Positions 19,735-37,506 of a stretch of 64,000 bases of DNA are shown here, in pieces. The translations under genes and the position numbers were made by a program. The stretch lies in NCBI RefSeq assembly GCF_041915215.1, contig NZ_JAYSBV010000012.1; one strand, written 5' to 3'. The DNA is from Zoogloea sp. (GTDB lineage: Bacteria > Pseudomonadota > Gammaproteobacteria > Burkholderiales > Rhodocyclaceae). Under the pieces are notes generated by a model, which made no database searches, was not told where the DNA came from, and was given only the letters and a program-made list of their open reading frames with translations. How positions within the stretch are numbered: position 1 is the first letter of the stretch; every line of letters begins with the position of its first letter.

Positions 19735-20122
19735 CTTAGCAATTCCCCTTCTTGGCCTGACCCGGCGGGCAAAAATCCCCACCACCACGATGGCCCCCGC
19801 TGCCACCTCGGTTCGGGTCCACAATCACGGCGCCACCCGGGGTGTATACCGCGCAGCCCCCCAACAGATTCAAAAAACTCGCCACAGCAGCCAGCATCAG
19901 CACTTTTTTCATTATTTATCCCTCATCGCATTGATTGTGTGGAATGGATCAGACAGCACCCATCCTGCCACGAGTCATTAAAAAGCACATCTCCAAACAC
20001 CGCCATCCAGGGCCAGAGGCAGCGGTCTCCCCACCAAAATACCCCCCTTTCCTCCCCCTGTTCTCCCCTAAGCCCAAGGGCGCCGATATCTAAGATTGCT
20101 GCAACCCTTCCAAGGAGCAGCA

Positions 20123-20893
20123 ATGAAGGCCGTGATCCTCGCGGGTGGCCTGGGCACCCGTCTTAGCGAAGAAACCGTCTCCCGCCCCAAGCCCATGGTG
20201 AACATCGGGGGGCGTCCCATCCTGTGGCACATCATGAAGATCTACTCCAGTCATGGCATCCATGACTTCGTGATCTGCTGCGGCTACATGGGCTACGTGA
20301 TCAAAGAGTATTTCGCCAACTACTTCCTGCACATGTCGGACGTCACCTTCGACATGAGCAACAACCAGATGGAAATCCACGAGCACCACGCCGAGCCGTG
20401 GCGCATCACCCTCGTGGATACCGGCGACCAGACCCAGACCGGCGGCCGCCTGGCCCGGGTGAAGCAGTACGTGAAGAACGAAGAGATGTTCTGCTTCACC
20501 TACGGCGACGGGCTGGCCGACATCGATGTGCGGGCCGAAATCGACTTCCACCGACGCCACGGCAAGCCCGCCACGGTGGCCGCCGTCCAACCCCCGGGGC
20601 GCTTCGGCTCGCTCCAGCTGGACGGGCCCGATGTGAGCGCGTTTGTCGAAAAGCCCCTGGGCGACGGCGGCTTCATCAACGGCGGCTTTTTCGTGCTCAA
20701 CCCCGGAGTGCTGGATCTGATCGACGGCGATCACAGCGTCTGGGAAGGCGACGTGCTCGCCCGCCTGATCGAACGCCACGAGCTGGCCGCCTTCCAGCAC
20801 AACGGCTTCTGGCGCCCCATGGACACCCTGCGGGACAAGTCCTACCTCGAAGAACTCTGGAACACCGGGAGCGCCCCATGGAAAACCTGGTGA
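20123..20893 (+). CDS. rfbF: glucose-1-phosphate cytidylyltransferase
   Basis: MKAVILAGGLGTRLSEET nucleotidyltransferase motif. About 256 aa. RBS AAGGAG. Confidence 0.9.
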   Translation: MKAVILAGGLGTRLSEETVSRPKPMVNIGGRPILWHIMKIYSSHGIHDFVICCGYMGYVIKEYFANYFLHMSDVTFDMSNNQMEIHEHHAEPWRITLVDTGDQTQTGGRLARVKQYVKNEEMFCFTYGDGLADIDVRAEIDFHRRHGKPATVAAVQPPGRFGSLQLDGPDVSAFVEKPLGDGGFINGGFFVLNPGVLDLIDGDHSVWEGDVLARLIERHELAAFQHNGFWRPMDTLRDKSYLEELWNTGSAPWKTW

Positions 20894-22014
20894 CGCCTCT
20901 TGTAGATCCGGGCTTCTGGGCCGGGCGGCGGGTATTTCTCACCGGCCACACCGGCTTCAAGGGCAGCTGGCTCGCCCTGTGGCTGCACCAGATGGGCGCA
21001 GAGGTGCAGGGCTATGCCCTCGCCCCGCCCAACAGCCCCAATCTGTTTGCCCTGGCGGGCATCAGCGAGCTGCTCCACAACCGGATCGGCGATCTGCGCG
21101 ACGGTGCTCACCTGCGGGCCTGCCTCACCAGCTTCGCCCCGGAAGTGGTGCTCCACCTGGGTGCCCAGGCGCTGGTGTCGGAAGGCTATGCCGACCCGGT
21201 GGGCACCTTCGCCACCAATGTCCAGGGCACCGTGAACCTGCTCGAAGCCGTGCGCTACTGCCCCAGCGTGGGTGCCGTGGTGGTGGTGAGCAGCGACAAG
21301 TGCTACGAAAACCGCGAATACACCGCCACCGACCGGGGCTATCACGAAGATGACCCCATGGGCGGCTACGACCCCTATTCGGCCAGCAAGGGCTGCACCG
21401 AACTGGTCGCCTCTGCCTACCGGCGCTCGTTTCTGCTGCAACGGGGCGTGCCCCTGGCCAGCGCCCGGGCCGGCAACGTGATCGGTGGCGGCGACTGGAG
21501 CCCTGCCCGGCTGGTGCCGGACGTGCTCGCTGCCTTCAGCGCCGGCCGCCCGGTGCTGCTGCGCAACCCGGACGGCGTGCGCCCCTGGCAGCACGTGCTC
21601 GAACCCCTGGCCGGCTACCTGGCCCTGGCCCAGCGCCTGCACCAGGAAGGCGCCCCCTGGGCCGAAGGCTGGAACTTTGGCCCCGACCCGGCGGATGCCC
21701 GGAGCGTGGGCTGGGTGGTGGAACACCTGGCCCGGGCCTGGGGCCCGGATGCCTGCTGGGACAAGGGCGATGCCCCCATCCATGAAGCTGGCACCCTGCG
21801 CCTGGATTGCCACAAGGCCCACACCCGCCTGGGCTGGCAGCCCCGCTGGGACACCGCCACCGCCCTCGACCGCAGCCTGGCCTGGTTCCGGGCCTGGCAA
21901 CAGGGCGCCGACATGCGCCAGTACAGCCGCGCCGAGATCGACGCCTACTGCGACGCTCCCGGCCTGGCCCCCACCGCCCCCACCCTCCACGGAGACACAT
22001 CATGCCCGGTCTGA
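20878..22014 (+). CDS. rfbG: CDP-glucose 4,6-dehydratase
   Basis: SDR extended family with [14 protein letters not shown] Rossmann motif. About 378 aa. Overlaps rfbF by 16 nt. Confidence 0.85.
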
Positions 22015-23369
22015 TCCGCTACGCCCTGCGCCCCGACGCGTCTGGCCAATGCCAACTGAACCTGCCCGAACTGGCCGGCCAGGATGTGGAAATCCTGGTG
22101 CGCCCGCGCCAGCCCGACAGCAGCGACACCCCCTGGCGCGCCGGGCGGGACAGCGTGCAGCCCTCGGGCAAGGTAATCGGCGAACCCGAAAAGAACGCCA
22201 TGATCGAAGCCGCCCTGGATGGCTGGCTCACCACCGGGCGCTTCAACGATGCGTTTGAGGAGCGCCTCGCCCGCTTTGTCGGGGTGCCCTACGCCCTCAC
22301 CGTGAATTCCGGCTCCTCGGCCAATCTGGTGGCCTTCACCACCCTGACCTCGCCCCAGCTGGGCGAACGGGCGATCCGCCCGGGGGATGAAGTCATCACC
22401 GTGGCCGCCGGCTTCCCGACCACCGTGTATCCCATCATCCAGAACGGGGCGATCCCGGTGTTCGTGGATGCCCGGCTGCCCGACTACAACATCGACGTGG
22501 CCATGCTGGAAGCGGCCCTCAGCCCCCGCACCAAGGCCATCATGGTGGCCCACACCCTGGGCAACCCCATTGATCTGGACACGATTTGCGCCTTTGCCCA
22601 GGCCCACAAGCTGTGGCTGATCGAAGACTGCTGCGATGCCCTCGGCTCCCGCTGGAAAGGCCGCCGGGTGGGGAGCTTCGGGGATCTGGCCACCCTGTCC
22701 TTCTACCCCGCCCACCACATCACCATGGGCGAAGGGGGCGCGGTGCTGACCGCCAACCCGGAGCTCAAGCGGATTGCCGAATCCTTCCGCGACTGGGGGC
22801 GGGACTGCTGGTGCAAGACCGGCTGCGACAACACCTGCGGCAAGCGCTTTGGCTGGCAGCAGGGCCGCCTGCCCGCCGGCTACGACCACAAATACACCTA
22901 CAGCCATGTGGGCTACAACCTCAAGATCACCGACATGCAGGCCGCCTGCGGGCTGGCCCAGCTGGATCGGCTGGAAGACTTCATCGCCGCCCGCAAGCGC
23001 AACTTCAACCACCTGAAGGCGGCCCTGGCCGATTGCACCGACTTTTTGATCCTGCCCGAAGCCACCCCGGGCAGCGATCCGGCGTGGTTCGGCTTCCCCA
23101 TCACCCTCAAGCCTGAAGCCGGGGTGAACCGGGTGGATCTGGTCCAGTACCTGGATCAGCACAAAATCGGCACCCGGCTGCTGTTTGCCGGCAACCTGAT
23201 CCGCCAGCCGGCCATGGCCGGGCGGGATTACCGGGTGATCGGCACCCTGCCGGTGGCCGACCAGATCATGCGCGACACCTTCTGGATCGGCGTGTGGCCC
23301 GGCCTCAGCCGGGAGCAGCTGGACTATGCCGTGCATCACATCAAGACCTTCCTGGGAGTCGAATTATGA
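22002..23369 (+). CDS. rfbH: CDP-6-deoxy-D-xylo-4-hexulose 3-dehydrase (E1, PMP-dependent, DegT/AHBA family)
   Basis: [10 protein letters not shown]...[12 protein letters not shown]-terminal signature of RfbH/DdhC. Start codon uncertain; the ATG at 22002 gives 455 aa and overlaps rfbG by 13 nt. Confidence 0.8.
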
Positions 23370-24862
23370 GCACCAAGCCCCTCATGGTGTTTGAAATGGC
23401 CAACAACCACATGGGCGACCTGGGCCACGGCCTGGCCACCATCCGCGCCCTGCGCGAGGCCTGCACCGGCTTCGAGGCCGATTTCGACTTCGCCTTCAAG
23501 CTCCAGTACCGGGATCTGGACACCTTCATCCACGCCTCGGTGCGCGGGCGCGAAGACGTGAAGTACGTGAAGCGCTTTGAAGAAACCCGGCTGAGCGACG
23601 CTTCCTTTCAGGAACTGGTGCGGGAAATGCGCGACAACGGCTTTCAAACCGTATGCACACCCTTCGACGAGCCCTCGGTGGACAAGATCGAAGCCCACGC
23701 CATCGAGAGCATCAAGGTCGCCAGCTGCTCCTTCACCGATTGGCCCCTGCTGGAGCGCATCGCCCAGAGCAACAAGCCGGTGATCGCCTCCACCGCCGGC
23801 GCGACGCTGGAAGAGATCGACAACGTGGTGAGCTTCTTCCTGCACCGCCACAAGCAGCTCACCCTGATGCACTGCGTGGCCGAATACCCGACCCCGGACG
23901 CCAGCCTGCAGGTGAATCAGATCGCCCTGCTCCAGGCCCGCTACCCGGACTGCCGGATCGGCTACTCCACCCACGAATCCCCCGACAACACCCTGGCGGT
24001 GGCCCTGGCCGTGGCCAAGGGCGCCCGGGTGTTCGAGAAGCATGTGGTGCTGCCCACCGCCCGCTACCCGGCCAATGCCTACTCGGCCAACCCGGCCCAG
24101 ATCCGGGCCTGGCTGGAAAGTGCGCGCCGGGCCCTGGCCATCTGCGGCAGCGCCGACCGCTACCAGCCCTCCCGCGCCGAAGAAGCCAGCCTGCACAGCC
24201 TGCGCCGGGGGGTGTTTGCCACCCGCCCCATTCCTGCCGGCACCCAGCTGACCCGGGACATGATCGAGTTTGCCTTCCCGCCGGTGGAAGGCCAGCTCAC
24301 CGCCAACGCGTGGTCCAAGTACAGCCAGTTCCGCGCCACCCAGGACATTCCTGCCGGCACCCCGGTGCTGCACATGGATCTGGCCGAAAGCCACCTGCGC
24401 AGCCAGGTGATGGGCATCGTTCAAGACGTGAAGAAGCTGCTCAAGGCCGCCCATGTGGTGATTCCGGGCAAGTCGGAACTGGAGATTTCCCACCACTTCG
24501 GGCTGGAGCGCTTTGACGACTTCGGGCTCACCATGCTCACCGTGGTGAACCGGGAATACTGCAAGAAGCTGCTGGTGCTGCTGCCGGGCCAGACCCACCC
24601 CGAGCAATACCACCTCAAGAAGGAAGAAACCTTTGTGGTGGTGCACGGCGAACTCACCCTGTGGCTCGATGGCGAAGAACGCCTGGCCCACGCCGGCGAC
24701 GTGATCACCGTGAACCGGGGCGTGCGCCACCGCTTTTACACCCGCGTGGGCGCGGTGTTCGAGGAGATTTCCTCCACCCACGAGCCCAACGACTCCTACT
24801 ACACCGACCCGGCCATTGCGCGGAACACCCAGCGCAAGACCTGGCTCACCTACTGGATGTAA
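23366..24862 (+). CDS. NeuB-family (sialic-acid-synthase-like) PEP-condensing enzyme with SAF domain, fused to a C-terminal cupin
   Basis: NeuB signatures [44 protein letters not shown] domain [17 protein letters not shown]. An extra roughly 140-aa cupin ([23 protein letters not shown]). ATGA overlap with rfbH. Confidence 0.65.
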
Positions 24863-24880
24863 GCCCGGAGACTGCCCACC

Positions 24881-26704
24881 ATGCGCCTTGCCGACTGGAT
24901 CATGCAGCGCCTCGCCGCCGAAGGGGTGCGCCACGTTTTCACCCTGCCCGGGGGCGGTGCCATGCATCTGAACGATGCCTTGGCCTGCGAAACCCAGCTT
25001 ACCCCAGTGCCCGGCCACCACGAACAGGCCTGCGCCATTGCTGCCGAGGCCTGCGGGCGCAGCGGCCCCCCGGGCTTTGGCGTGGTGCTGGTGACCACCG
25101 GGCCGGGGGCCACCAATGTGGTGACGCCCGTGGCCGGGGCGTGGATAGACTCGGTGCCCCTGCTGGTGATTTCTGGCCAGGTGAAGCGGGCCGATCTGCT
25201 CAATGGCCGTCCCCTGCGCCAGACCGGCGTGCAGGAGGTGGACATCATCAGCATGGTGCGCGGCATCACCAAATACGCGGTCACCGTCACCGACCCCCTC
25301 ACCATCCGCCAGCACCTGGAACAGGCCCTGTACCGGATGCGCCATGGCCGGCCCGGCCCGGTCTGGCTGGATATTCCGTTGGACGTGCAGGCTGCCCCCA
25401 TCGAACCCGAACAGCTCCCCGGCTGGAGCGCCCCCGAGCTGGACAGCCCCCTGCCCGGTCACACCCTGAGCGCCATTGCCGGGCTGCTCCAGAAATCCCG
25501 CCGCCCGCTGATTCTGGCGGGCCACGGGGTGCGTCTGGCCGGCGCGGCCAAGGACTTCCGGCAACTGGTGGACGCCCTCGGGATTCCCGCCGTCACCACC
25601 TGGAACGCCCTGGACCTGCTCCCCTGGGAACACCCCCTCAACCTGGGCCGCCCCGGCGTGGTGGCCGCCCGGGCCGCCAATTTTGCGGTGCAGAACTGCG
25701 ACCTGCTGATCGCCATTGGCAGCCGGCTGGACCCCATCATCACCGCCTACAACCCCAAGGGCTTTGCCCGGGAGGCACGCAAGGTGGTGGTGGATGTGGA
25801 CCCCCACGAACTGGCCCGCCTCGCCCAGCAAGACATGCCCATCGACCACGCCCTGGCCCTGGATGCGGGCGACTTCATCCGGGGGCTGGAAGTGGCCACT
25901 CGCAGCCTGAACCTGGATCAGCACGAAGCCTGGCGGGTGCGCTGCCGGGGCTGGAAGACCCGCTATCCGCTCAACGAAACCCCGCGCTTCCCCAGCGAAG
26001 GCCCCATCGGCCACGCCCATTTTGTGGCGGCCCTCTCGGAGGCGGCCCCGCCGGATACCCTCATCAGCACCGGCAGTTCGGGGCTGGCGGTGGAGTTTTT
26101 CTATGCGGGCTTCAAGAACAAGGAAGGGCAGCGCTGCTTCCTCACTTCCGGGCTCGGGGCCATGGGCTACGGCCTGCCCGCAGCGATTGGCGCCAGCCTG
26201 GGCCAGGACAAGCAAGCCTCCCTGGCGGTGGAGTCCGATGGGAGCCTGCAGCTCAACCTGCAGGAACTCGCCACCCTGGTGGCCCAACGCCTGCCGGTGT
26301 GCCTGTTCATCATGAACAACGGGGGCTATGCATCGATCCGCAACACCCAGCGCAACTACTTTGCCGGGCGCTATCTGGCGAGCGGCCCCCAATCCGGCCT
26401 GCACATGCCCGAACTGGGCCCCCTCGCCACCGCCTACGGGCTGCCCTACATGCAGATCAGCAACTGCCGAAATCTGGCCCAGCAACTGCGCGAAGCGCAA
26501 AACCTGCCCCGCCCCTGCCTGATCGACGTGCGCCTGATTCCCGATGAAACCCTCGCCCCCAAGTGCGCCGCGATTCCCCGGCCCGACGGTTCGATTGTTT
26601 CCATGCCGCTCGAAGACATGAGCCCCCTGCTGCCCCTGGAAACCCTCCAGCGGGAAATGCTGGTGCCGCTCCTGCCCGCATCGCTGGAAGCCCCCCGTTC
26701 CTGA
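24881..26704 (+). CDS. thiamine-diphosphate-dependent acetolactate-synthase-like enzyme (YerE-type sugar two-carbon branching enzyme candidate)
   Basis: ALS/TPP family architecture, 607 aa, with a GDG-like TPP region. Embedded in the CDP-sugar operon, as yerE is in the yersiniose cluster. Confidence 0.7.
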   Translation: MRLADWIMQRLAAEGVRHVFTLPGGGAMHLNDALACETQLTPVPGHHEQACAIAAEACGRSGPPGFGVVLVTTGPGATNVVTPVAGAWIDSVPLLVISGQVKRADLLNGRPLRQTGVQEVDIISMVRGITKYAVTVTDPLTIRQHLEQALYRMRHGRPGPVWLDIPLDVQAAPIEPEQLPGWSAPELDSPLPGHTLSAIAGLLQKSRRPLILAGHGVRLAGAAKDFRQLVDALGIPAVTTWNALDLLPWEHPLNLGRPGVVAARAANFAVQNCDLLIAIGSRLDPIITAYNPKGFAREARKVVVDVDPHELARLAQQDMPIDHALALDAGDFIRGLEVATRSLNLDQHEAWRVRCRGWKTRYPLNETPRFPSEGPIGHAHFVAALSEAAPPDTLISTGSSGLAVEFFYAGFKNKEGQRCFLTSGLGAMGYGLPAAIGASLGQDKQASLAVESDGSLQLNLQELATLVAQRLPVCLFIMNNGGYASIRNTQRNYFAGRYLASGPQSGLHMPELGPLATAYGLPYMQISNCRNLAQQLREAQNLPRPCLIDVRLIPDETLAPKCAAIPRPDGSIVSMPLEDMSPLLPLETLQREMLVPLLPASLEAPRS

Positions 26705-26727
26705 CTCCGACTGACTGAGGTCTGCCC

Positions 26728-27888
26728 ATGAGCCTCGCCTGCCGGCTGTGTGACCAGCCCCTGTTCCCCGACCCGCTGCTGTGCCAGCACCACATGCCCG
26801 CCGCCGCCCAGGAGCTGCCCACCGCCGCCACCCTGAGCGCCGATGGGGGGGTGAGTCTGGCCCTGCACCAGTGCAGCGCCTGCGGCGTGGTCCAGCTCAC
26901 CAACCCACCGGTGCCCTATTACCGGGACGTGATCCGCGCTGCCGGGCTCTCGGCGGAGATGCGCGCCTTCCGCCTCCAGCAGTTTGGCGCCTGGGTGGCC
27001 GGGCACGACCTCGCCGGCAAGCCGGTGCTGGAAGTGGGCTGCGGCCAGGGGGAATACCTGGCCCTGCTGCGCGAGGCCGGCGTGGATGCGTGGGGCCTGG
27101 AGCACCGGGCCGCCTCGGTGGCCCACTGCCAGACCCAGGGCCTGCAGGTCTTGCAGGGCTTCATGGAAGGCCCTGAAACCCGCTTCGCCGGGCCGGGCAT
27201 CCCGGGCCACTTCGACGGCTTTGCGATTCTCAATTTTCTGGAACACATCCCCGCCGCGCACCGAACCCTGGCCGGCATCGCCGCCCACCTGAGCCCGGGG
27301 GCCAGCGGGCTGGTGGAAGTGCCCAATTTCGACATGATCCTGAAGGCCGGGCTGTTTGCCGAGTTCATCCCGGATCATCTGCACTACTTCACCCAGGCCA
27401 CCCTCACCGGCCTGCTGGAGCGCAGCGGTTTCGAGGTGCTGGAGTGCCGGCCCGAATGGCACGATTACGTGCTCTCGGCCACGGTGCGCAAGCGCCAGCC
27501 CCTGGATCTGTCCAGCCTCAACCAGCGCCAGCACGCCCTGGCCGACGAATTCCGCCGCTTTCTGGCCGGCTTTGCGCCGGGCCGGGTGGCGATCTGGGGC
27601 GCTGGCCACCAGGCCCTGGCCCTCATCAGCCTGATGGACATCGCCCCCCACATCCGCTACGTGCTGGATTCGGCCCCCTTCAAGCAGGGGCGTTACACCC
27701 CGGCCACCCACCTGCCCATCGTGCCCCCCGAGCGGCTGGCCGAGGGCGAGGTGGATGCGGTCATCGTGCTCGCCGCCAGCTATTCGGACGAAGTGTTGCG
27801 CACCCTGCGGGCGCGCCACGGCAGCCGCTTTCGCACCGCTGCCCTGCGTGGCGAGCACCTGGTCTGCGATCCGGAGCCCCAGCCATGA
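26728..27888 (+). CDS. sugar C-methyltransferase (TylC3-like; Zn-ribbon + class I SAM MTase + C-methyltransferase C-terminal domain)
   Basis: N-terminal Cys-rich CRLCDQP...CQHH...CSACG. SAM motif VLEVGCGQGEY. C-terminal Rossmann-like VAIWGAGHQALALISL domain. Confidence 0.7.
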   Translation: MSLACRLCDQPLFPDPLLCQHHMPAAAQELPTAATLSADGGVSLALHQCSACGVVQLTNPPVPYYRDVIRAAGLSAEMRAFRLQQFGAWVAGHDLAGKPVLEVGCGQGEYLALLREAGVDAWGLEHRAASVAHCQTQGLQVLQGFMEGPETRFAGPGIPGHFDGFAILNFLEHIPAAHRTLAGIAAHLSPGASGLVEVPNFDMILKAGLFAEFIPDHLHYFTQATLTGLLERSGFEVLECRPEWHDYVLSATVRKRQPLDLSSLNQRQHALADEFRRFLAGFAPGRVAIWGAGHQALALISLMDIAPHIRYVLDSAPFKQGRYTPATHLPIVPPERLAEGEVDAVIVLAASYSDEVLRTLRARHGSRFRTAALRGEHLVCDPEPQP

Positions 27889-28442
27889 ATGCGCCACCTT
27901 CAAGCCCCGTCACCCCGGACGCCCTGGAGGCCGCCATTGCCACCCTGCAGGCCGCCGTGGGCTCGGCCCAGGCGGGGCTGCCCGAGCCGGTGTTCCAGCT
28001 GGTCAGCAGCCTGACCCCGCTCATCAATGTGGATCTGCTGATCCACGACGAACACGGTCGCTGCCTGCTCACCTGGCGCCACGATGCCTTCTACGGGCCA
28101 GGCTGGCACATTCCGGGGGGCATCATCCGCTTCAAGGAAGCCGCCGCCCAGCGCATTGCCGCCGTGGCCGACCTGGAGCTGGGCTGCTGCGTCACGTTCG
28201 CACCCCTGCCCATCGCCCTGCACGAAATCACCAACCCGAACCGGGACGTGCGCGGCCATTTCATCTCGCTGCTGTACTCCTGCCGCCTGGCCAGCCCCCC
28301 CGACCCGGGCCGGGCCTTTGATCCGGCCAGCCCCCGGGCAGGGGACTGGGCCTGGCACACGGGCAGCCCGGACAACCTGATCCACCAGCAGCACATCTAC
28401 CGCCCCTACATCGACAACCCCCTTGCCGGAGTCTGGTCATGA
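27885..28442 (+). CDS. NUDIX hydrolase, GDP-mannose mannosyl hydrolase (Gmm/NudD)-like NDP-sugar hydrolase
   Basis: Modified Nudix box GGIIRFKEAAAQRIAAVADLELG, alignable to Gmm GGRVQKDETLEAAFERLTMAELG. ATGA overlap with the methyltransferase. Confidence 0.55.
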   Translation: MNAPPSSPVTPDALEAAIATLQAAVGSAQAGLPEPVFQLVSSLTPLINVDLLIHDEHGRCLLTWRHDAFYGPGWHIPGGIIRFKEAAAQRIAAVADLELGCCVTFAPLPIALHEITNPNRDVRGHFISLLYSCRLASPPDPGRAFDPASPRAGDWAWHTGSPDNLIHQQHIYRPYIDNPLAGVWS

Positions 28443-29512
28443 GCGCGCTCGATATTCTGGTCACCACCTACAACGGCGTCGCCCACCTGGGTGACTGCCT
28501 GCAATCCCTCGTCCGGCAACGCTTCACCGACTTTCGGGTGCTGGTGATCGACAACGCCTCCAGCGACGCCACCCCCGCGCTGGTGGAAGAATGGATGGCC
28601 CGGGATGCCCGCATCCACTACCACCGCAACCCCCAGAACATCGGCCACATGCTGTCCGCCGACACGGCCTACCGGATGACCGGGGCCGAATACGTGCTCC
28701 AGATCCACGACGACGACATGCTGCACCCGGACTTCCTCAGCCAGGTGCTGGAACAGGGTCTAATGCAGCATCCGGACTGCCCCTTCGCCTACAGCCTGTT
28801 TTACCGGCTGGTGGACGGTGTCACCCTACCCGGCATCCACCAGTACCGGCCCGAGCTGCCCACCGGCGTGCATGACGTGCTGCCCGCCCTGTGCTTCACC
28901 AACTGGATCCTCCAGTCCTTCACCGTGTTCCGGCGGGCATGGTTTGATGCGGTAGGCGGCTTCCAGCGCCACATCGCCCGGCTCCACCCGGAAGACGCGG
29001 TCAAGCTGCGGGGCGGGTTTGTGGATCACTACATGTGGGCCCGGCTCGCCACCCTGGGGCCCGCCTATGTGGTGGATGAGCCCCTGGGCTATTACCGCAT
29101 CCACGCCAGCAGCCAGTTCAACCAGTCCAGCGGCAGCCGGCGCCTGATCCAGGAAGCGATCCGCACCTACGACTACATCTACGACGATCACGACCTGTTC
29201 GACGACGTGACCCGCTACCTGGTCAAGCTCAACCAGGCGGGCCGGCTGCTGACCCAGTGCGGGCTGATCAAAACCGCCGTCGACATGCTCCAGAGCCCCG
29301 ACACGGGCCCCGAACTGGCGCCCATCCGGCGTGCCTTCCTGCAGGGTCTGCACACCGGGCTGGAGCACATGGTGTTCGATTCCCCCAAGTTTCGGGAGCA
29401 CTTCCGGCTGGAAACGCCGGAAACCCTGGGCATGCTGGCCCAGATCATCCGCGACCTGCCCCCCGACACCACCCTGCGGCCCCGCAACACCCTGCGCGCC
29501 CGCATGTCCTGA
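28439..29512 (+). CDS. glycosyltransferase family 2
   Basis: ILVTTYNG...LVIDNASSD GT2 Rossmann start and a DDD motif. 4-nt overlap with the NUDIX gene. Confidence 0.75.
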   Translation: MSALDILVTTYNGVAHLGDCLQSLVRQRFTDFRVLVIDNASSDATPALVEEWMARDARIHYHRNPQNIGHMLSADTAYRMTGAEYVLQIHDDDMLHPDFLSQVLEQGLMQHPDCPFAYSLFYRLVDGVTLPGIHQYRPELPTGVHDVLPALCFTNWILQSFTVFRRAWFDAVGGFQRHIARLHPEDAVKLRGGFVDHYMWARLATLGPAYVVDEPLGYYRIHASSQFNQSSGSRRLIQEAIRTYDYIYDDHDLFDDVTRYLVKLNQAGRLLTQCGLIKTAVDMLQSPDTGPELAPIRRAFLQGLHTGLEHMVFDSPKFREHFRLETPETLGMLAQIIRDLPPDTTLRPRNTLRARMS

Positions 29513-29527: not shown

Positions 29528-30568
29528 ATGTCCCCCGCCCTGCTTGCCGCCCCACTAAACCCGTTTGCCGACTGGGCCGCCCTGCGTGGCGCCCGGATCT
29601 TCATCACCGGCGGCACCGGCCTGTTCGGCCACTGGCTGCAGCCCCTGCTCTGCCGGGCCAACCAAACCCACGGACTGGGGCTGCAGCTCACGGTACTGAG
29701 CCGCGACCCGGCGCGCTTTCTGGCCGCCCATCCGGAACTGGCCGATGATACGGCGCTCAGCTTCATCGCCGGGGATGTGCGCGACTTTGCCTTCCCGGCA
29801 GGGGAATTCAGCCATGTGATCCACGGGGCGGCCACCGCCGCTGCCGCCACCTTCCACCGCCAGGAAGACGCCCTCACCAAGTTCGACACCACCTATGCCG
29901 GTACCCGCCGGGTGCTGGATTTCGTGGCCGAACGGGGTATCCCGCGCCTGCTGGTGCTGGGCTCGGGCGCTTACTACGGCCCCCTCCAGGCGGGCCACAC
30001 GGCCTACCCGGAGGACTACCCGGTCGCCCCCGAGCCCGGCAATCTGGACGTGGCCATTGGCCATGCCAAGCGGGCGGCGGAGTTCCTGTGCGCGGCCTAC
30101 GCGGCCCGCCACGGGTTTTCGTATTCGGTGGCGCGCTGCTTTTCCTTTGTCGGCCCCCATCTGCCCCTGGATCTGCACTACGCCATCGGCAACTTCATTC
30201 GCGATGCGCTGACGGCGCCCGCCATCATCGTGGGGGGCGACGGCAGCCCGATCCGCTCCTATCTGTATCTGGGCGACCTGATGGTCTGGCTGCTGACCGT
30301 GCTCACCCGGGGCGCCCCGGGGCAGGCCTACAACGTGGGCTCGGATGAAGCGATCAGCATCGGCGAACTGGCCCGGCGGGTGGGCGCGCTGTTGGCGCCC
30401 GGCAAGCCGGTACACATCCTGGGCCAGCCGAACGGGCTGCCTACCCGCAACATCTACGTGCCGGACATCCGCCGCGCCCGGGCGGAACTGGGGCTGGACG
30501 TACTCACCCCGCTGGATGATGCGATCCGCATCACCGCCCGCCATGCCGCGCCCCAAAGGCCGAATTAG
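29528..30568 (+). CDS. NAD-dependent epimerase/dehydratase (SDR) family protein, candidate NDP-4-keto-sugar reductase/epimerase
   Basis: ITGGTGLFGHWL glycine-rich NAD-binding motif. About 346 aa. Confidence 0.7.
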   Translation: MSPALLAAPLNPFADWAALRGARIFITGGTGLFGHWLQPLLCRANQTHGLGLQLTVLSRDPARFLAAHPELADDTALSFIAGDVRDFAFPAGEFSHVIHGAATAAAATFHRQEDALTKFDTTYAGTRRVLDFVAERGIPRLLVLGSGAYYGPLQAGHTAYPEDYPVAPEPGNLDVAIGHAKRAAEFLCAAYAARHGFSYSVARCFSFVGPHLPLDLHYAIGNFIRDALTAPAIIVGGDGSPIRSYLYLGDLMVWLLTVLTRGAPGQAYNVGSDEAISIGELARRVGALLAPGKPVHILGQPNGLPTRNIYVPDIRRARAELGLDVLTPLDDAIRITARHAAPQRPN

Positions 30569-30694: not shown

Positions 30695-31807
30695 ATGAGC
30701 ATTGCCCTAACCCCTGACGCCGGCCTCAACCCCGGCGAAGCCGCGAAACGCAACGACCTGGCGCAACGCAAGCCCTACATCGCCGCCAAGCTGGCGCGCA
30801 TCACCGAGATGGAGGAACGCGGCGAGATCAGCCCCATCATCCGGCTGGAAAAGAGCTATCTGTGCAACTTCACTTGCACCCATTGCTCTGCCGAGTACTA
30901 CATGGACCGGCACCTTAAAAAGGTTTTCCAGATCGTGGATGAGCGCCGCAAGATTGATCTGGACGACATTCGCCGGATCTCCCGCGAAGCCGACGAACTG
31001 GGCCTTGCCCGCTTCGTGATTACCGGGGGCGAGCCCCTGGTGATGAAGGACTTCGATGAGGTGGTGGCCGCCATCGACCCGGATCGCCATTACGTGATCA
31101 CCGACACCAATGGCTGGTTCCTGGATCTGGCCAAGGCCAAGCACCTGAAATCCATCGGCGTTGAAAAAGTCCAGCTCTCGCTGGACAGCATGGTGGAAGC
31201 CGATCACGACGCCTTCCGCAACAAGCCCGGCTCCTACAAGCGGGTGATGCGCGCCATCGACGCGGCCCGGGAGGCCGGCCTCAACCTGATTCTCTCCACC
31301 GTGCTGGTCAAGGGCCGGGCCAAAACCGACGAGTTCCGCCAGATGTGCGAATTCGCCAAGGCCAAGGGCATCGGGCTGTATGTGTCTTACGCCAAGCCCA
31401 CCGGCTCGTGCACCGAACACCCGGAGTTCGTGATCGAGAAGGAAGACGCCGACATCGTGCGGGAGCTGGAAAAGGAATATCCGGTATTCACCCACATGAC
31501 CCCTTCCTACGGCTCCTTCAAGGGCTGCATCACGGTGAAGGGCATCATCACCATCACCTCCACCGCCGAGGTGACGCCCTGCCCCTACATTGATTTTTCG
31601 CTCGGCAACCTGCGCGAGACGCCCCTCAAGGAAATTCTCGCCCGGGGCATGCGCAATCCCTGGCTCGGCCCCCACCGGCCCGACTGCCTGATCGGCGAAG
31701 ACCCCCAGTTCATCAAGATCCACACCGAACGCACCCAGGGCCGCACCCATCTGCCGGTGCCCTGGGGCCAGGGTTTTTCGGATCACGACAGCCTCCAGGA
31801 CGAGTGA
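30695..31807 (+). CDS. radical SAM enzyme (CX3CX2C; C-terminal Cys-containing auxiliary region)
   Basis: CNFTCTHC cluster motif. GGEPLV SAM-binding motif. C-terminal CPYID...C residues. Confidence 0.75.
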   Translation: MSIALTPDAGLNPGEAAKRNDLAQRKPYIAAKLARITEMEERGEISPIIRLEKSYLCNFTCTHCSAEYYMDRHLKKVFQIVDERRKIDLDDIRRISREADELGLARFVITGGEPLVMKDFDEVVAAIDPDRHYVITDTNGWFLDLAKAKHLKSIGVEKVQLSLDSMVEADHDAFRNKPGSYKRVMRAIDAAREAGLNLILSTVLVKGRAKTDEFRQMCEFAKAKGIGLYVSYAKPTGSCTEHPEFVIEKEDADIVRELEKEYPVFTHMTPSYGSFKGCITVKGIITITSTAEVTPCPYIDFSLGNLRETPLKEILARGMRNPWLGPHRPDCLIGEDPQFIKIHTERTQGRTHLPVPWGQGFSDHDSLQDE

Positions 31808-31876: not shown

Positions 31877-32683
31877 ATGTTTGCCACCGCCGACACCCTG
31901 CCCGACCTGTCCCTGTTTGATGAAAGTGGCCGCTGCCTGCCCAAGGGCCTGAACGCCCCGGCCCACGCCCGCAGCCGTCGCTACTTCCGCCTCCAGCCGC
32001 CGCGTCTGGACATGCCCAATCTGCACGCCCGGCTGCGCCAGCACCTGGGCGCCGGCCAAGGCATCAGCACCCAGGATTTCTGCACCCGGGTGGACGCCCT
32101 GCGCGCCAACCTGCAGGCAGACCCCCACCTGGCCGCCATTACCCGGGGCATCGGGATTCCCTTCATCCTGCCCCGGCTGGAGCACCCTGATGTGGGTACC
32201 GTACTGGACAAGCGCTACCTGCCGGCCATTGCCAGCGCCTTTGGCCAGCGCTTCCCGGATTACCGCTTCACCAGCCACCACACCCGCCCCCTGGCCGGGC
32301 TGTTGGGGGTACTGGAAGGCAGTCGCCACGAACGCCTGATCGAAGCCAGCCGGGAACGGGAGGTGGTGGGCCTGTACTTCCCTTGCCTCTCGGAATACTC
32401 GGTGCCCGCCGCCCTCGAACAGGTGGCCCGGCTGCCCGACAACTTTGTGCTGGCCGGCGGCTATGACACCAGTGCCGCCCTGGTGGCCTGCCCCGAGCTG
32501 CTGCTGCGCACCGACGGTTACCCGCCCCTGCTGTGGCTTTCGGCCCTGGCCGAAAACGGCAAACCCGGCATTGGCTACCACTACGAAGCCTACGGCTACA
32601 ACCTGACCTTCAACCGGCGCCCCCACCTGGGCATGGCCGCCGAGTACTGGAGCCACGGCCTGAGCGTGCTGGAAACCGTCTGA
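31877..32683 (+). CDS. hypothetical protein
   Basis: Co-directional ORF inside the island with no recognisable motif. Start uncertain. Confidence 0.35.
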   Translation: MFATADTLPDLSLFDESGRCLPKGLNAPAHARSRRYFRLQPPRLDMPNLHARLRQHLGAGQGISTQDFCTRVDALRANLQADPHLAAITRGIGIPFILPRLEHPDVGTVLDKRYLPAIASAFGQRFPDYRFTSHHTRPLAGLLGVLEGSRHERLIEASREREVVGLYFPCLSEYSVPAALEQVARLPDNFVLAGGYDTSAALVACPELLLRTDGYPPLLWLSALAENGKPGIGYHYEAYGYNLTFNRRPHLGMAAEYWSHGLSVLETV

Positions 32684-32725: not shown

Positions 32726-35700
32726 ATGTCCAGCACGCTCCTGCGTCAGCTCTACGGCGCCCGCCGCCATCCCTATTACGTGATGGCCCCGGACTACCGG
32801 CGCACCTCCGCCGGCATCCGGGTCATGCACCAGCTCTGCCATGCCCTGCGCCTGAGCGGGGAGGAGGCCTGGATCGTGACCCAGCAGACCCACCCGGGCC
32901 TGGACACGCCCCTCCTGACCGATGAAATCCGCGCCGCCCACCAGAAAGCCGGCCTGGTGCCCATCGCCATTTACCCGGAAGTGGTGGGCCGCAACCCGCT
33001 CAACGGACGCGTGGTGGTGCGCTACCTGCTCAACCGCCCGGGCATGCTGGGCGAAACCCCGGCCTACGGCGCCGATGATCTGATTTACGTATACGAACCC
33101 GAGCTGGCCACCCACAGCGAGCGGGTGGATGGGGTGCTGCACATGCCCTCCATCGACACCCGGCTGTTCCATAACCGGGACAACCCGGACGAGGGCCGAC
33201 GCTCGGGATGCTGCATCTACTTTGGGCGCTACACCGGCGGCCCCCAGGAATACGCCGAACTGGCCGCCCGCTGCACCACGATCACCAGCGACTTTCCGGC
33301 CAGCCGGGAAGCACTGGCCGCCCTGCTGCGCCGCTCCGAATGGCTCTACTGCTTCGAAAACACCGCCCTGTCGATGGAAGCCCGCCTGTGCGGCTGCCCG
33401 GTGGTGATCCTGCCCGGCCCCATGTTCCGGGCCGAGAGCTTCTTTGGCCGGGAGCAGGGCTTTGAGCAAGGGGTGGCCTTCTCCGAAGAGCCCGCCGCCC
33501 TCGCCCAGGCCCGGGCCAGCGTGGGGCGCATCCCCGCCCTCTACGCCCGGCTGGAAGAAAAGTTCTGGAGCGGGCTGGACAGCCTGATCGAACAGACCCA
33601 GACCCGGGCCCAGGAAGAAGCCGCCCGCATCGGCGAAGAAGACCCGGCCCACCCCCGGAGCAGCAGCCAGGACCCGGAATACGCCACCTGGCGCGCCCGC
33701 CAGAGCCTGCAGGAAGTGGATGCCGAGGTGCTGGCCGAACGCATGGTGCAGCGCTGGACCCACCGCCCGGGCATCCACCTGATCCTCGAACTGCGCGCCG
33801 GCCAGGAGCCCCTGCTGGCCGACACCCTGGACAGCCTGGCCGCCCAGCTCTACCCCGAGTGGCTGCTGACCGTGGTGACGGTGCTGGACAAGCCCCCGGT
33901 GGCCGATGAGATTCCGAATCTCCAGTGGCTGAGCCTGCGCGACATCACCCACACCGATTACGTCATCGACGAAATGGCCAAGGCCTCCCCGGGCCAGTGG
34001 GTCGCCCGCATCGTGCCCGGCCTGACCCTGGAACCCCAGGCCCTGCAGGTGGCAGCGGATTACATCAATGCCCGCCCGGCCTGGCGCCTGATCTACACCG
34101 ACGAAGACACCCTGGAAGCAGACGGCAGCTACAGCCAACCCCTGTTCAAGCCCGATTTCAACCTGGACCTGCTGCGCGCCCAGGCCTATTTCGGCAGCCT
34201 GGTGCTGGTGGAAAAGCAGGCCCTGGTGGCCGCCGGCAGCTATGGCCCGGGCCAATACCCCTGGGCCGAAAACTATGACCTGAGCCTGCGGGTGCTGGAA
34301 CAGCAGGGCGAGGCGAGCATCGGCCACATCGACCAGATGCTCGTGCACCTGCATCGTCACAGCCCCCTCAGCCTCAACCCGGCCAGCGAAAAGGCCGCCC
34401 TGGAAGCCCATCTGGCCCGTTGCGGGCTGGAAGTGCGGGTACACGACAGCCCCCTGGCCGGCACCCGCCGGCTGGAACACCTGTGGCCCACCACGCCCCT
34501 GGTCAGCCTCATCATCCAGACCCGGGACCGGGAGGAATACCTGCGCCCCCTGCTGGACAGCCTGCGCGAACGCACCCGCTACCCGGCCTGGGAAGTGGTG
34601 CTGGTGGATAACGACAGCAGCGAGCACGACAGCCTCGCCTACCTGGCCGAGCTGCAGGCCGACCCGTTCTGGAGTGCCCGGCTGCGCGTCGTCCCCTGCC
34701 CGGGTGAGTTCAGCTACGCCCGGGGCGCCAACACCGGCGCCCGCCAGGCCCGGGGCGCCTATCTGATGTTCCTGGACAACGACATGCACATCGTTCAGGA
34801 CGAATGGCTGGACCGGCTGATGAGCCACGCCCAGCGCCCCGAGGTACTGATCGTGGGCCCGCGCCTGAGCTACCCGGAAACTGGCAAGGTACAGCAGACC
34901 GGCTGGGTGCTGGGCCTGCGGGGCAGTGCCGGCAGCCCCTGGGACAATGATCTCGAACTGGCCGCCCCCGGCTACATGGGGCGCGGGCTGTGCGATCAGA
35001 ACGTGGGCGCCATTGGCGGCTCGGCCCTGCTGATCCGCCAGACCGAATTTGCCCGGGTGGGCGGGATGGACGAGGTGAATTTCCCCCTCGCCCAAAGCGC
35101 GCTGGATCTGTGCCTGCGCGTTACCGGCGAAGGGGCCCCGGCGGGTGCCAAGATCGTCTGGACCCCCCACGCGATGCTGGTCCATTACGGCAGCGTTTCC
35201 CTCAAGGCCCGCCAGCGCAAGACCGAGGTGGCCCTGGCCGACCTGCTTGAAGCCCAGCGCGCCCACGATCAGGTGGTGGAGCGCTGGCTCCCCCGGCTGG
35301 CCCGGGACCCGGCCTATAACCGCCATCTGAGCTTGGTCAGCCCCTTCAAGCCCGAACATGTGATCCCCATGGACTGGGATCCGAACTTCCACGACCGGCC
35401 CCGCATTCTGGGCGTTCCGCTCACCGGCGGCGCTGGGGAATACCGGCTGCGCGCCCCCCTGCGCGCCCTGGCCCAACGGGGCCTGGCCCAGACCACCATC
35501 TGCGATCCACCCCGGGCCTTTACGGTGCGCATCCTGTCGCCAGTGGAAGTGGCCCGGGCCGCGCCGGACAGCCTGGTGCTGCACCAGCCCCTGGATGATG
35601 CCCAGAGCGACGCCCTCGCGGCCTACGCCCGCTTCGTCCCTGAGGTGAAGCGCATCGTGACCATGGATGACCTGATCACCGCCCTGCCCAAGAAGAACTG

Positions 35701-36394
35701 CTTTTATAAAAGCGGCTTCAAGGACGCCCGGGCCCGGCTGCGCCGCAACCTGGGCCTGGCAGACCGGCTGGTGGTGAGCACCCAGCCCCTGGCCGAGCTG
35801 TGCGCCGGGATGATCGACGATATCCGGGTGATGCCCAACGGGCTGGAAAGCGCACTCTGGCTCCCGGTTCAGCCGCCCCGCAAAGCCCGCCGCAAGCCCC
35901 GGGTGGGCTGGGCCGGCGCCCAACAGCACCAGGGCGACCTGGAACTGATTTACCCGGTGGTGGAAGCCCTGGCCGATGAGGTGGACTGGATTTTCATGGG
36001 CATGTGCCCGGACCCGCTCAAACCCTTCGTACGGGAAGCCCACGGCTTCGAGCTGAATTTCCGGGCCTATCCGGCAGCCCTCGCCCGGCTGGATCTGGAT
36101 CTGGCCATCGCGCCCCTGGAAATCCACGCCTTCAACGAAGCCAAGAGCAACCTGCGCCTGCTGGAATACGGGGCCATGGGCTGGCCCGTGGTGTGCACCG
36201 ACATCTACCCTTACCAGGACGCACCGGTGACCCGACTCCCCAACGATCCACAACGCTGGATCACCACCCTGCGCGAAATGCTGGCCGAACCCGAGGCCCT
36301 GGCCGCTGCGGGTCAGCAGCTACGCCAATGGGTTCTGGATCGTTACCTACTTGAAAACCTGCTGCCAGACTGGCTCTCCGCCTACGGCCCCTGA
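32726..36394 (+). CDS. large multidomain glycosyltransferase (unknown N-terminal region + two GT2 domains + C-terminal GT1/GT4-like domain)
   Basis: LVSLIIQTRD...VVLVDNDSS...FLDNDM (GT2 with DxD). An earlier GT2-like segment (LILELRAG...YTDEDT). C-terminal RVGWAGAQQHQGD...GWPVVCTDIYPY GT1-like segment. Ends 290 nt before fliC. Confidence 0.75.
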   Translation: MSSTLLRQLYGARRHPYYVMAPDYRRTSAGIRVMHQLCHALRLSGEEAWIVTQQTHPGLDTPLLTDEIRAAHQKAGLVPIAIYPEVVGRNPLNGRVVVRYLLNRPGMLGETPAYGADDLIYVYEPELATHSERVDGVLHMPSIDTRLFHNRDNPDEGRRSGCCIYFGRYTGGPQEYAELAARCTTITSDFPASREALAALLRRSEWLYCFENTALSMEARLCGCPVVILPGPMFRAESFFGREQGFEQGVAFSEEPAALAQARASVGRIPALYARLEEKFWSGLDSLIEQTQTRAQEEAARIGEEDPAHPRSSSQDPEYATWRARQSLQEVDAEVLAERMVQRWTHRPGIHLILELRAGQEPLLADTLDSLAAQLYPEWLLTVVTVLDKPPVADEIPNLQWLSLRDITHTDYVIDEMAKASPGQWVARIVPGLTLEPQALQVAADYINARPAWRLIYTDEDTLEADGSYSQPLFKPDFNLDLLRAQAYFGSLVLVEKQALVAAGSYGPGQYPWAENYDLSLRVLEQQGEASIGHIDQMLVHLHRHSPLSLNPASEKAALEAHLARCGLEVRVHDSPLAGTRRLEHLWPTTPLVSLIIQTRDREEYLRPLLDSLRERTRYPAWEVVLVDNDSSEHDSLAYLAELQADPFWSARLRVVPCPGEFSYARGANTGARQARGAYLMFLDNDMHIVQDEWLDRLMSHAQRPEVLIVGPRLSYPETGKVQQTGWVLGLRGSAGSPWDNDLELAAPGYMGRGLCDQNVGAIGGSALLIRQTEFARVGGMDEVNFPLAQSALDLCLRVTGEGAPAGAKIVWTPHAMLVHYGSVSLKARQRKTEVALADLLEAQRAHDQVVERWLPRLARDPAYNRHLSLVSPFKPEHVIPMDWDPNFHDRPRILGVPLTGGAGEYRLRAPLRALAQRGLAQTTICDPPRAFTVRILSPVEVARAAPDSLVLHQPLDDAQSDALAAYARFVPEVKRIVTMDDLITALPKKNCFYKSGFKDARARLRRNLGLADRLVVSTQPLAELCAGMIDDIRVMPNGLESALWLPVQPPRKARRKPRVGWAGAQQHQGDLELIYPVVEALADEVDWIFMGMCPDPLKPFVREAHGFELNFRAYPAALARLDLDLAIAPLEIHAFNEAKSNLRLLEYGAMGWPVVCTDIYPYQDAPVTRLPNDPQRWITTLREMLAEPEALAAAGQQLRQWVLDRYLLENLLPDWLSAYGP

Positions 36395-36681: not shown

Positions 36682-37506
36682 ATGGCTGCCACGATCAACA
36701 CCAATTCCATGTCGCTCAACGCACAGCGGAATCTGTCTTCCTCGGCCGGTATCATGGCCAAGTCGGTCCAACGCCTGTCTTCGGGCCTGCGGATCAACGG
36801 CGCATCCGATGATGCAGCCGGCCTGGCGATTGCCGACAAGATGAACTCCCAGGCCAAGGGTTTTGACGTGGCCATCCGCAATGCCAACGACGGCATCTCC
36901 ATGGCCCAGACCGCAGAAAGCGCGATGCAGGCCGTGACCGACAACCTCCAGCGGATGCGCGAACTGGCGGTCCAGTCGGCCAACGGTACCTACACCAGCG
37001 GTGACCAGGCCAACATGGATACGGAATTCCAGCAGCTGCAATCGGAAATCCAGCGGGTTGTGGGGGGCACCACCTTCAACGGTCAGAACGTGCTGAACCT
37101 CAGCTCCAACGTGAATTTCCAGGTGGGTGCCGGTACTGCCACCACGGACACCATCACGGTGCAAAGCAGCGCAGTGACCCTGTCCGGGGTGTCCGCCGCC
37201 GTGACCGGCAGCATCAGCGCCGCCTCGGCTGCCACCGCCGCGATTGCCAACATCGACACCCAGATCAACAACCTGAACACTGCCCGCGCCACGTGGGGCG
37301 CCGTGCAGAACCGGTTCTCCTCGGTGGTCCAGACCCTGCAGGTGGCTTCGGAAAACGCCAAGTCCTCCCGTGGCCGGATCATGGATGCAGACTTCGCCCA
37401 GGAAACCTCCAACATGACCCGCGGCCAGATCCTGCAACAGGCCGGTACCGCGATGGTGGCCCAGGCCAACAGCGCCCCCAACAACGTGCTGTCCCTGCTC
37501 CGCTAA
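36682..37506 (+). CDS. fliC: flagellin (short, 274 aa)
   Basis: Conserved flagellin N-terminus ([16 protein letters not shown]...[20 protein letters not shown]) and C-terminus ([26 protein letters not shown]). RBS AAGGAG. Confidence 0.9.

Follow-up and report, generated by a model that had tools for sequence, protein, structure and literature searches.

What is the role of an enzyme resembling acetolactate synthases that is encoded in the middle of a CDP-sugar operon? We addressed this question for a 64,000-nucleotide stretch of contig NZ_JAYSBV010000012.1 from Zoogloea sp. (assembly GCF_041915215.1), hereafter called the window, in which an open reading frame (ORF) at positions 24881..26704 on the plus strand encodes a 607-aa protein of the thiamine diphosphate (ThDP) family. 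A first-pass annotation had compared this protein with YerE, the branching enzyme of yersiniose biosynthesis, and proposed that it transfers a two-carbon (C2) unit from pyruvate onto CDP-4-keto-3,6-dideoxyglucose. Judging from sequence and gene context, the protein is most likely a YerE-like ThDP-dependent carboligase, belonging to a clade related to JanthE, and not an acetolactate synthase (ALS) of branched-chain amino acid biosynthesis.

The ORF starts with ATG and has a GC content at third codon positions (GC3) of 0.85 in a genome of about 66% GC. Its product matches the three Pfam domains TPP_enzyme_N (1.4e-31), TPP_enzyme_M (2.6e-35) and TPP_enzyme_C (1.4e-29), which cover the whole length of the protein, so that the ORF is far beyond what could be expected by chance. 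The start at position 24881 is backed by the N-terminal peptide MRLADWIM, which is kept in the orthologues, and an identical protein has been recorded for a metagenome-assembled genome (MAG) of Zoogloea sp. The protein contains the catalytic glutamate Glu47 (in HHEQ) and a ThDP-binding motif of the form S-D-G-X26-NN, and terminates in the tail PLEDMSPLLP. The surroundings are also those that had been described, with rfbF, rfbG, rfbH and a NeuB-like gene before the ThDP gene and a sugar C-methyltransferase gene after it. Likewise, Pfam scans of the main ORFs of the window detected no ilv gene, and the sole other ThDP enzyme is a transketolase.

The names that automatic annotation attaches to such proteins are those of ALS: all of the best NCBIfam matches bear ALS names, and the relatives appear in public annotations as 'acetolactate synthase large subunit'. 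The window protein indeed shares with the large subunits of acetohydroxyacid synthases (AHAS; IlvB/IlvG/IlvI) their fold, domain order and catalytic Glu (HHEQ), with about 31% identity. However, it reaches only 351 bits against the best NCBIfam ALS model, TIGR00118, for a cutoff of 538, and remains under the cutoff of every other ALS model. In the alignment to the Arabidopsis enzyme (AtAHAS), D376/R377 are replaced by Pro/Ile and W574 by Thr, with the same substitutions in the orthologues; R377 and W574 are residues that we take, from established structural work on AHAS, to recognise the acceptor keto acid. Two further features of the window protein, six residues inserted after the GQV loop and a C-terminal extension of about 45 residues, have no counterpart in the aligned AtAHAS. 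No ilvN or ilvH gene for a regulatory subunit, nor any ilvC or alsD gene, is present nearby, two annotated orthologous loci list no ilv-type family, and the gene is conserved inside the sugar operon in 80 genomes. We rejected ALS identity on the basis of the scores below the family cutoffs, the replaced acceptor residues and the sugar-operon context, and a bona fide anabolic or catabolic ALS lying by chance in this operon seems to us extremely improbable.

Among proteins of solved structure, the best match is JanthE (PDB 8rph), with 377 bits over residues 2–594, versus 249 bits for the best AHAS. Pairwise identities of the window protein are 34.6% with JanthE, 30.7% with PpYerE (5ahk) and 31.0% with AtAHAS. 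It shares with JanthE (8rph/8rpi/8rpj) the three domains, the 6-residue loop insertion after the GQV/GNE loop, a C-terminal tail of the form PK..DG..VS.PLED.SPL.P, a non-glycine residue at the first position of the ThDP motif and a gene that follows rfbF-rfbG-rfbH. The two proteins differ in the motif itself, CDG in JanthE and SDG here, and at C458/M406 of JanthE, which correspond to S452/S400 in the window protein (DNA about 26078–26236). Each of these pairs is at least 95% conserved within its own clade; similarly, CDG is found in at least 95% of 120 aligned JanthE-clade proteins and SDG is invariant in the close orthologues of the window protein. In JanthE, C458 is said to contact M406, which we mention as a lead only. 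JanthE, from Janthinobacterium sp. HH01, is a characterised YerE-like lyase with an unusual CDG motif, joining alpha-keto acids to ketones (PMC12188165, PMC12247030).

The relationship to YerE itself is looser. YerE of Yersinia pseudotuberculosis and PpYerE are, like the window protein, ThDP enzymes encoded together with ddhA/B/C-type genes for CDP-4-keto-3,6-dideoxy-D-glucose, and PpYerE has the same 6-residue insertion relative to AHAS. PpYerE differs by its canonical GDG motif and by an alignment that ends ahead of the C-terminal tail. The Yersinia system differs by its pyruvate (C2) donor, its role in O-antigen synthesis and the presence of the E3 gene ddhD in the cluster, which is missing from the window. 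A neighbour-joining tree of 24 sequences with few reference groups (JanthE, PpYerE and AtAHAS as references; YpYerE, ErwE and MMAR_2332 left out) placed the window clade and the JanthE clade together, apart from PpYerE and AtAHAS, each clade being monophyletic (bootstrap 100/100). The phylogenetic comparison with YerE and ALS sequences suggested in the first-pass annotation thus supports kinship with the JanthE clade, PpYerE being by score and identity no nearer than AHAS.

A HMMER search of 1.84 billion cluster representatives recovered 3471 proteins at E ≤ 1e-30. The ThDP motif was determined by alignment for 149 of the best 150 representatives (372–745 bits), replacing an unreliable count by regular expression. 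It is GDG in 127 of them and GEG in seven, SDG being confined to the 13 closest, and a PLED(M/L)xP C-terminal tail is common to most of the 149. The window protein is thus a member of a broad and varied family, nearly all of it uncharacterised, in which the SDG proteins form a distinct clade.

The acceptor sugar is suggested by the three genes at the head of the operon, whose products all exceed NCBIfam equivalog cutoffs. The gene rfbF/ddhA (20096..20893, plus strand) encodes a glucose-1-phosphate cytidylyltransferase (TIGR02623, 461.6 bits vs cutoff 300); its likely true start is the ATG at 20123, after an AAGGAG ribosome-binding site, the family alignment starting at residue 10 of the ORF. 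It overlaps by 16 nt rfbG/ddhB (20878..22014, plus strand), encoding a CDP-glucose 4,6-dehydratase (TIGR02622, 449 bits vs cutoff 278), which is followed by rfbH/ddhC (22002..23369, plus strand) for the E1 enzyme CDP-6-deoxy-4-hexulose 3-dehydrase (PRK15407, 720 bits vs cutoff 423). In RfbH, the Schiff-base Lys is replaced by His (SFYPAHH), and Cys211/269/271/279 have exactly the spacing C-X57-C-X-C-X7-C, the meaning of these motifs being known from work on the Yersinia E1 enzyme. RfbF, RfbG and RfbH together predict CDP-4-keto-3,6-dideoxy-D-glucose, the acceptor of YerE and ErwE. The idea of a YerE-like branching of this sugar is therefore backed by both the operon context and the kinship with JanthE; the two-carbon, pyruvate-derived part of the idea did not hold up as well, for the reasons that follow.

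Directly upstream of the ThDP gene lies a gene (23366..24862, plus strand) encoding a 498-aa protein in which a NeuB-type phosphoenolpyruvate (PEP)-condensing synthase is fused to a SAF domain and to a D-lyxose/D-mannose-isomerase-like cupin, the latter two being additional to the 'NeuB-like' part described previously. Enzymes of the NeuB type condense PEP with an aldose, and the resulting 3-deoxy-2-ulosonic acid is by structure a gamma-hydroxy alpha-keto acid. The synthase part is a near-orthologue (484 bits) of the protein in PDB entry 3g8r, a structural genomics entry without published function. Residues E10, K45, K117, H203 and H226, aligned with the catalytic Glu and Lys and the metal-binding His residues of NmNeuB and covering its metal and PEP sites, are invariant in 120 homologues. 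The C-terminal 150 residues match the D-lyxose ketol-isomerase 2y0o (E = 3e-9), and the cupin fold is nearest to free-sugar isomerases; its residues Q414, H416, E421 and H455 are also invariant. Judging from these invariant residues, both domains look functional. Mean column conservation is 0.80 for the cupin domain and 0.78 for the synthase domain.

Like the NeuB/PseI/LegI synthases and 3g8r, this fusion retains the catalytic Glu, Lys and His and combines a TIM barrel with a SAF domain. It differs from these synthases by scores below their equivalog cutoffs, by the additional isomerase-like cupin, by the lack of a CMP-activating enzyme nearby and by the replacement with Pro of the residue aligned with Arg314 of NmNeuB, the Arg that binds the N-acetyl group. 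An identity as synthase of N-acetylneuraminic, pseudaminic or legionaminic acid was rejected on these grounds (147 and 138 bits vs cutoffs of 400 and 340; Arg314 aligned with Pro). A CMP-sugar synthetase of the CTP_transf_3 type was found neither in the island of the window nor in three other loci of the family (L083, L084 and L090), which leaves the NeuB product without an obvious means of activation or alternative fate.

The association of the two genes is widespread. In a scan of one genome per species we obtained 390 relatives of the ThDP enzyme, and the best 80 (55–72% identity) were taken as orthologous loci (L001–L080). They come from Rhodocyclales, Chromobacterium, Methylophilaceae, Polynucleobacter, Gallionellaceae, Geobacteraceae, Gammaproteobacteria and Pirellulales. 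The NeuB-cupin gene is upstream of the ThDP gene in all 80 loci, directly so in 78, where the cupin is kept and the two genes are separated by a median of about 18 nt, and about 0.8 kb away in the other two. The other genes are less regular, their counts being lowered by the many loci that end at contig edges: rfbH is present in 63 loci, rfbG in 59, rfbF in 55, the short-chain dehydrogenase/reductase (SDR) gene in 44, the C-methyltransferase gene in 39, the NUDIX gene in 38, the radical S-adenosylmethionine (SAM) gene in 32 and a gene for a 268-aa orphan protein in 22. The reverse search, starting from the NeuB-cupin protein, gave 120 top matches that are all at least 63% identical and contain both NeuB and Cupin_2 domains. 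The order rfbF-rfbG-rfbH-NeuB-cupin-ThDP-C-methyltransferase was again observed in Chromobacterium violaceum and in a Gemmatimonadaceae MAG, whose contexts were both inspected.

The type of neighbour changes with the clade of the ThDP enzyme. The JanthE locus (L081) has the order rfbF-rfbG-rfbH-JanthE-SDR, followed by genes for a DmpF-like acetaldehyde dehydrogenase, a DmpG-like 4-hydroxy-2-oxovalerate aldolase, a second SDR and a glycosyltransferase, where the window has a NeuB-isomerase fusion. Two further JanthE-clade loci, from Pseudomonas extremaustralis and Roseateles, also carry the DmpF/DmpG pair, which is thus found in three of three JanthE-clade loci versus none of the 81 SDG-clade sequences, all 81 of which have the NeuB-cupin gene. 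In an intermediate GDG relative (L090, 44% identical; 5650–8806), a 289-aa NeuB protein without SAF or cupin and a Hydrolase_3 phosphatase are encoded immediately upstream of the ThDP gene, within a block containing rfbH-rfbG-rfbF, C-methyltransferase and SDR genes and, further on, radical SAM/SPASM and GT2 genes. The Hydrolase_3 protein is of the KdsC/Kdn-9-P-phosphatase type. This arrangement implies that the donor is supplied along the same lines, but starting from a phosphosugar. Other GDG intermediates include one with a 616-aa NeuB fusion and one with an HpcH/HpaI aldolase. Every member inspected with enough flanking sequence has an enzyme that builds an alpha-keto acid, the type of which tracks the ThDP clade; in L089, a short contig, no keto-acid-forming neighbour was seen.

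Two tandem ThDP genes are present in a single CDP-sugar cluster of the P. extremaustralis contig (L085, 6220–9833), one encoding a 572-aa PpYerE-type protein (69% identity to 5ahk, GDG motif) and the other a 610-aa JanthE-type protein (CDG motif), in a cluster that also holds E3 and DmpF/DmpG. This suggests either two different branched sugars or two successive branchings.

Previous work established gamma-hydroxy alpha-keto acids as the donors of ErwE, MMAR_2332 and MyGE, with ErwE rejecting pyruvate and having among its neighbours an aldolase predicted to make the donor (Steitz et al., 2022; PMC9306805). The ulosonic acid formed in a NeuB reaction would fit exactly this donor pattern. The invariant NeuB-cupin neighbour, the clade-linked type of neighbour and this published aldolase scheme make a long donor more likely than a C2 unit; a polyhydroxylated C7–C8 branch derived from the NeuB product is more likely than a C2 branch. 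The transfer of a two-carbon unit from pyruvate, as first proposed, is probably wrong, because the NeuB-isomerase fusion precedes the ThDP gene in 80 of 80 loci and because the related clades carry DmpFG, HpcH/HpaI or NeuB plus phosphatase, which matches the scheme of a long donor made by an aldolase (PMC9306805). In the pathways of ErwE, MMAR_2332 and MyGE (erwiniose, caryophyllose and gastriose), as proposed here for the window, the gamma-hydroxy alpha-keto acid comes from a neighbouring C–C-forming enzyme and is attached to the CDP-ketosugar by the ThDP enzyme, with reduction following. The window differs by having a PEP-dependent NeuB-type synthase-isomerase fusion instead of a DmpG- or HpcH/HpaI-type pyruvate aldolase, and by an implied flagellin target instead of lipopolysaccharide (LPS) or lipooligosaccharide.

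The competing explanation closest to the original proposal is that the enzyme performs a YerE-type C2 (acetyl) transfer from pyruvate to give a yersiniose-like sugar, with the NeuB-cupin protein making an unrelated second sugar for the same glycan. The genes for the acceptor pathway are present, as this explanation requires, the block contains an SDR that could act like YerF, and pyruvate is among the donors taken by JanthE (PMC12188165, PMC12247030). It would nevertheless leave unexplained the strict adjacency to the NeuB-cupin gene in 80 of 80 loci, including those in non-flagellar contexts, as well as the family-wide covariation between ThDP clade and neighbour type, and no CMP-sugar synthetase is there to activate an independent ulosonic acid. 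Moreover, the YerE-type enzymes with a GDG motif are another lineage, as illustrated by the 572-aa protein encoded in L085, which shares 69% identity with PpYerE but only 31% with the window protein. We therefore regard this explanation as unlikely. Another possibility is that the ThDP enzyme is only a decarboxylase or small-molecule carboligase, converting the ulosonic acid into a 2-deoxy-aldose or an acyloin that would reach the glycan by some other route, without ligation to the CDP-ketosugar. ThDP decarboxylases are common in the superfamily, the tightest linkage in the loci is precisely that of the NeuB-cupin gene with the ThDP gene (80/80), and the sampled flanks of some loci, such as L067 and L079, lack rfbFGH. 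Yet in most complete loci rfbFGH lie directly before the pair, as part of one operon-like block; an enzyme able to turn a free deoxy-aldose back into a nucleotide sugar is lacking; and the closest relatives of characterised function are ketone-accepting carboligases (PMC12247030). The proposal of a simple decarboxylase or small-molecule carboligase appears less probable still than that of C2 transfer.

If the enzyme is a carboligase using a long donor, where does the branched sugar go? The CDP-sugar genes of the window are part of a same-strand block of 13 genes (20096–36394), with overlaps or gaps of at most 23 nt as far as the SDR gene and of at most 126 nt beyond. This block extends seven genes past what the first-pass annotation had described, the gene order after the C-methyltransferase being NUDIX, GT2, extended SDR, radical SAM/SPASM, 268-aa orphan and 1222-aa glycosyltransferase. 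The flagellin gene fliC (36682..37506, plus strand; 274 aa, matching Pfam Flagellin_N and Flagellin_C and the NCBIfam flagellin models) begins 287 nt past the end of the block, with flaG, fliD, fliS and a fliK-like gene after it. Flagellin genes also directly abut the module in seven other loci (L023, L051, L059, L060, L072, L076 and L077), from Pseudothauera, Halieaceae, Methylophilaceae, Methylophilus, an uncultured betaproteobacterium, Sulfuricella and Sulfuricellaceae, with fliD in five of the seven, and several further loci end in a homologous giant glycosyltransferase just short of the 10-kb limit of the flanks. Since the block ends at fliC and the module stands beside flagellin genes in seven other lineages, the CDP-sugar operon is therefore, by gene contiguity, a flagellin glycosylation island in this genome, and flagellin is probably the acceptor of the glycan.

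From the gene identities, the conserved synteny and the relationships between clades, we infer the following pathway. RfbF, RfbG and RfbH (E1) would convert glucose-1-phosphate into CDP-4-keto-3,6-dideoxy-D-glucose, with an E3 partner supplied from elsewhere. Within the fusion protein, a free ketose and its aldose counterpart, of the lyxose or mannose type, would be interconverted by the cupin domain; the aldose would then react with PEP at the NeuB domain to yield the 3-deoxy-2-ulosonic acid donor. The ThDP enzyme would then decarboxylate this alpha-keto acid and add the acyl-anion equivalent to the C4 ketone of the CDP-sugar, producing a tertiary alcohol that carries an acyl branch. Tailoring of the CDP-linked sugar would then fall to the C-methyltransferase, the SDR and the radical SAM/SPASM enzyme, and transfer of the branched sugar to flagellin to the two glycosyltransferases. 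We consider this scheme as a whole, combining a YerE-like carboligase, a long donor made by the NeuB-cupin protein, a CDP-ketosugar acceptor and a flagellin target, to be reasonably probable. More tentatively, and with somewhat more doubt than belief, one could imagine that it represents a convergent, hitherto undescribed route to branched sugars of about C13–C14 in many Betaproteobacteria, cultivable Chromobacterium and Zoogloea among them, in which the isomerase-NeuB fusion makes a C8–C9 ulosonic acid from PEP and a common pentose or hexose, the SDG ThDP lyase decarboxylates it and grafts it onto C4 of CDP-4-keto-3,6-dideoxyglucose, and C-methylation and radical-SAM tailoring precede flagellin decoration.

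Several observations weigh against this scheme. Concerning the enzyme, identity to JanthE is only 34.6%, PpYerE scores no higher than AHAS (249 bits each), the tree spans four groups only, and JanthE takes pyruvate too in vitro (PMC12188165). Concerning the donor, the metal site of the cupin reads Q-x-H...E...H, its first ligand His being replaced by an invariant Gln. Ulosonic acids are, in addition, mostly cyclic in solution. Concerning the acceptor, no E3 reductase of the AscD/DdhD type (Fer2-FNR) was detected in the window or in the 80 orthologous loci with the E3 of L085 as query, so that the reductase partner must come from elsewhere; E3 is also missing from JanthE's own locus and present in the two other JanthE-clade loci (L085 and L086). 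Concerning the target, flagellin is within reach in only eight of 81 loci, a count limited by the 10-kb flanks, and the Gemmatimonadaceae locus looks non-flagellar, carrying PMT_2 and ABC-transporter genes. The module, also found in Polynucleobacter (L054), is thus not exclusively flagellar. Very large proteins combining tetratricopeptide repeats (TPR) with a GT41 (O-GlcNAc-transferase-like) domain flank several clusters (L081, 1–5942; L079, 4875–7388; L086, 1080–2876). Some of them carry methyltransferase or GT2 domains, and one in L081 adjoins the gene of a PEP-CTERM protein, which hints at protein glycosylation targets besides flagellin.

The ThDP gene is followed in the window by genes whose products could tailor and transfer the sugar, all of them on the plus strand. 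The putative nucleotide-sugar C-methyltransferase (26728..27888; Pfam Methyltransf_23 and Methyltransf_14) has the sugar 3-C-methyltransferases KijD1 (5t64) and TcaB9 as nearest solved structures. The NUDIX hydrolase (27885..28442; Pfam NUDIX, 1.6e-5) scores 26 bits with the GDP-mannose mannosyl hydrolase model PRK15434, far under the cutoff of 146, and may release the free sugar substrate. It is followed by a GT2 glycosyltransferase (28439..29512; Glycos_transf_2, 3.8e-19) and by an extended SDR of the epimerase/dehydratase/reductase family (29528..30568; Epimerase, 1e-28). The latter shares 33% identity with the 351-aa SDR of the JanthE locus, has UXS and dTDP-glucose dehydratases as nearest structures, and is a candidate for the reduction of the branch carbonyl. 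The radical SAM/SPASM enzyme (30695..31807; Pfam Radical_SAM and SPASM, under all NCBIfam cutoffs) is the most conserved protein of the module, with 76–88% identity across genera versus 55–72% for the ThDP enzyme. Its gene is regularly followed, in L003, L006, L027, L031, L060 and other loci, by that of its companion, the 268-aa orphan protein (31877..32683), which matched no family in Pfam, NCBIfam or PHROG and for which an AlphaFold2 single-sequence model was unusable (pLDDT 34). The last gene of the block (32726..36394) encodes a multidomain glycosyltransferase of 1222 aa with a central GT2 domain and a weak GT1-like region at its C-terminus. Homologues occupy the same position in the loci of Zoogloea, Thauera and Chromobacterium, and the protein is a candidate flagellin glycosyltransferase.

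Upstream of fliC, the sequence TAAAGTCT...CCGTAAAT (36566–36595) bears a loose likeness to a sigma-28 (FliA) promoter; a search of the exact sigma-28 consensus gave no match, the promoter and terminator scan yielded nothing decisive, and a search of the window against Rfam returned zero matches. On the other side, eutB and eutC, encoding an acetaldehyde-producing ethanolamine ammonia-lyase (16514–18738), and the gene of a Gcw_chp outer-membrane protein lie directly upstream of the island (16514–19666 taken together). The eutBC pair was rejected as an acetaldehyde source because it is not conserved beside the module in any other locus, and its adjacency looks coincidental. Finally, a stretch of lower GC content (0.58–0.60; 47346–56180 and 58959–63751), unrelated to the present finding, holds a Calvin-cycle-type gene set (phosphoribulokinase, transketolase, glyceraldehyde-3-phosphate dehydrogenase and phosphoglycerate kinase) and an RtcR-RtcB RNA-repair locus.

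The first-pass annotation had presented this chemistry as lying outside the context in which yersiniose biosynthesis was described. Such an occurrence is in itself no novelty: YerE homologues outside Yersinia have already been recognised in O-antigen loci of Pseudomonas (PMC4509608), and a 2025 review cites an in silico study with more than 200 predicted YerE-like clusters, the enzymes being said to serve mainly LPS (PMC12247030). Neither flagellin nor NeuB is mentioned in that review. Full-text literature searches likewise retrieved no paper tying YerE-like enzymes to flagellin, within a coverage that did not include the cluster study of Krug et al. (2024), where NeuB-containing clusters may have been described earlier. 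The variant features of the locus are its SDG ThDP motif, its NeuB-isomerase donor module and its predicted flagellar target.

The physiological substrates of most YerE-like enzymes, JanthE included, are not established, and these enzymes are among the few biocatalysts giving chiral tertiary alcohols from unactivated ketones (PMC12188165, PMC12247030). If the C2 transfer turned out to be true, the locus would simply be one more yersiniose-type cluster. If the long-donor scheme is true, NeuB-type enzymes would join the DmpG and HpcH/HpaI aldolases as a third class of enzymes supplying donors to the YerE-like family. The locus gives a concrete donor hypothesis for a large uncharacterised clade, and proposes a role for the widespread orphan NeuB-cupin family for which a structure (3g8r) has been solved. 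It also predicts that the flagella of cultivable bacteria, Chromobacterium violaceum for example, carry an unusual branched sugar with a higher number of carbons.

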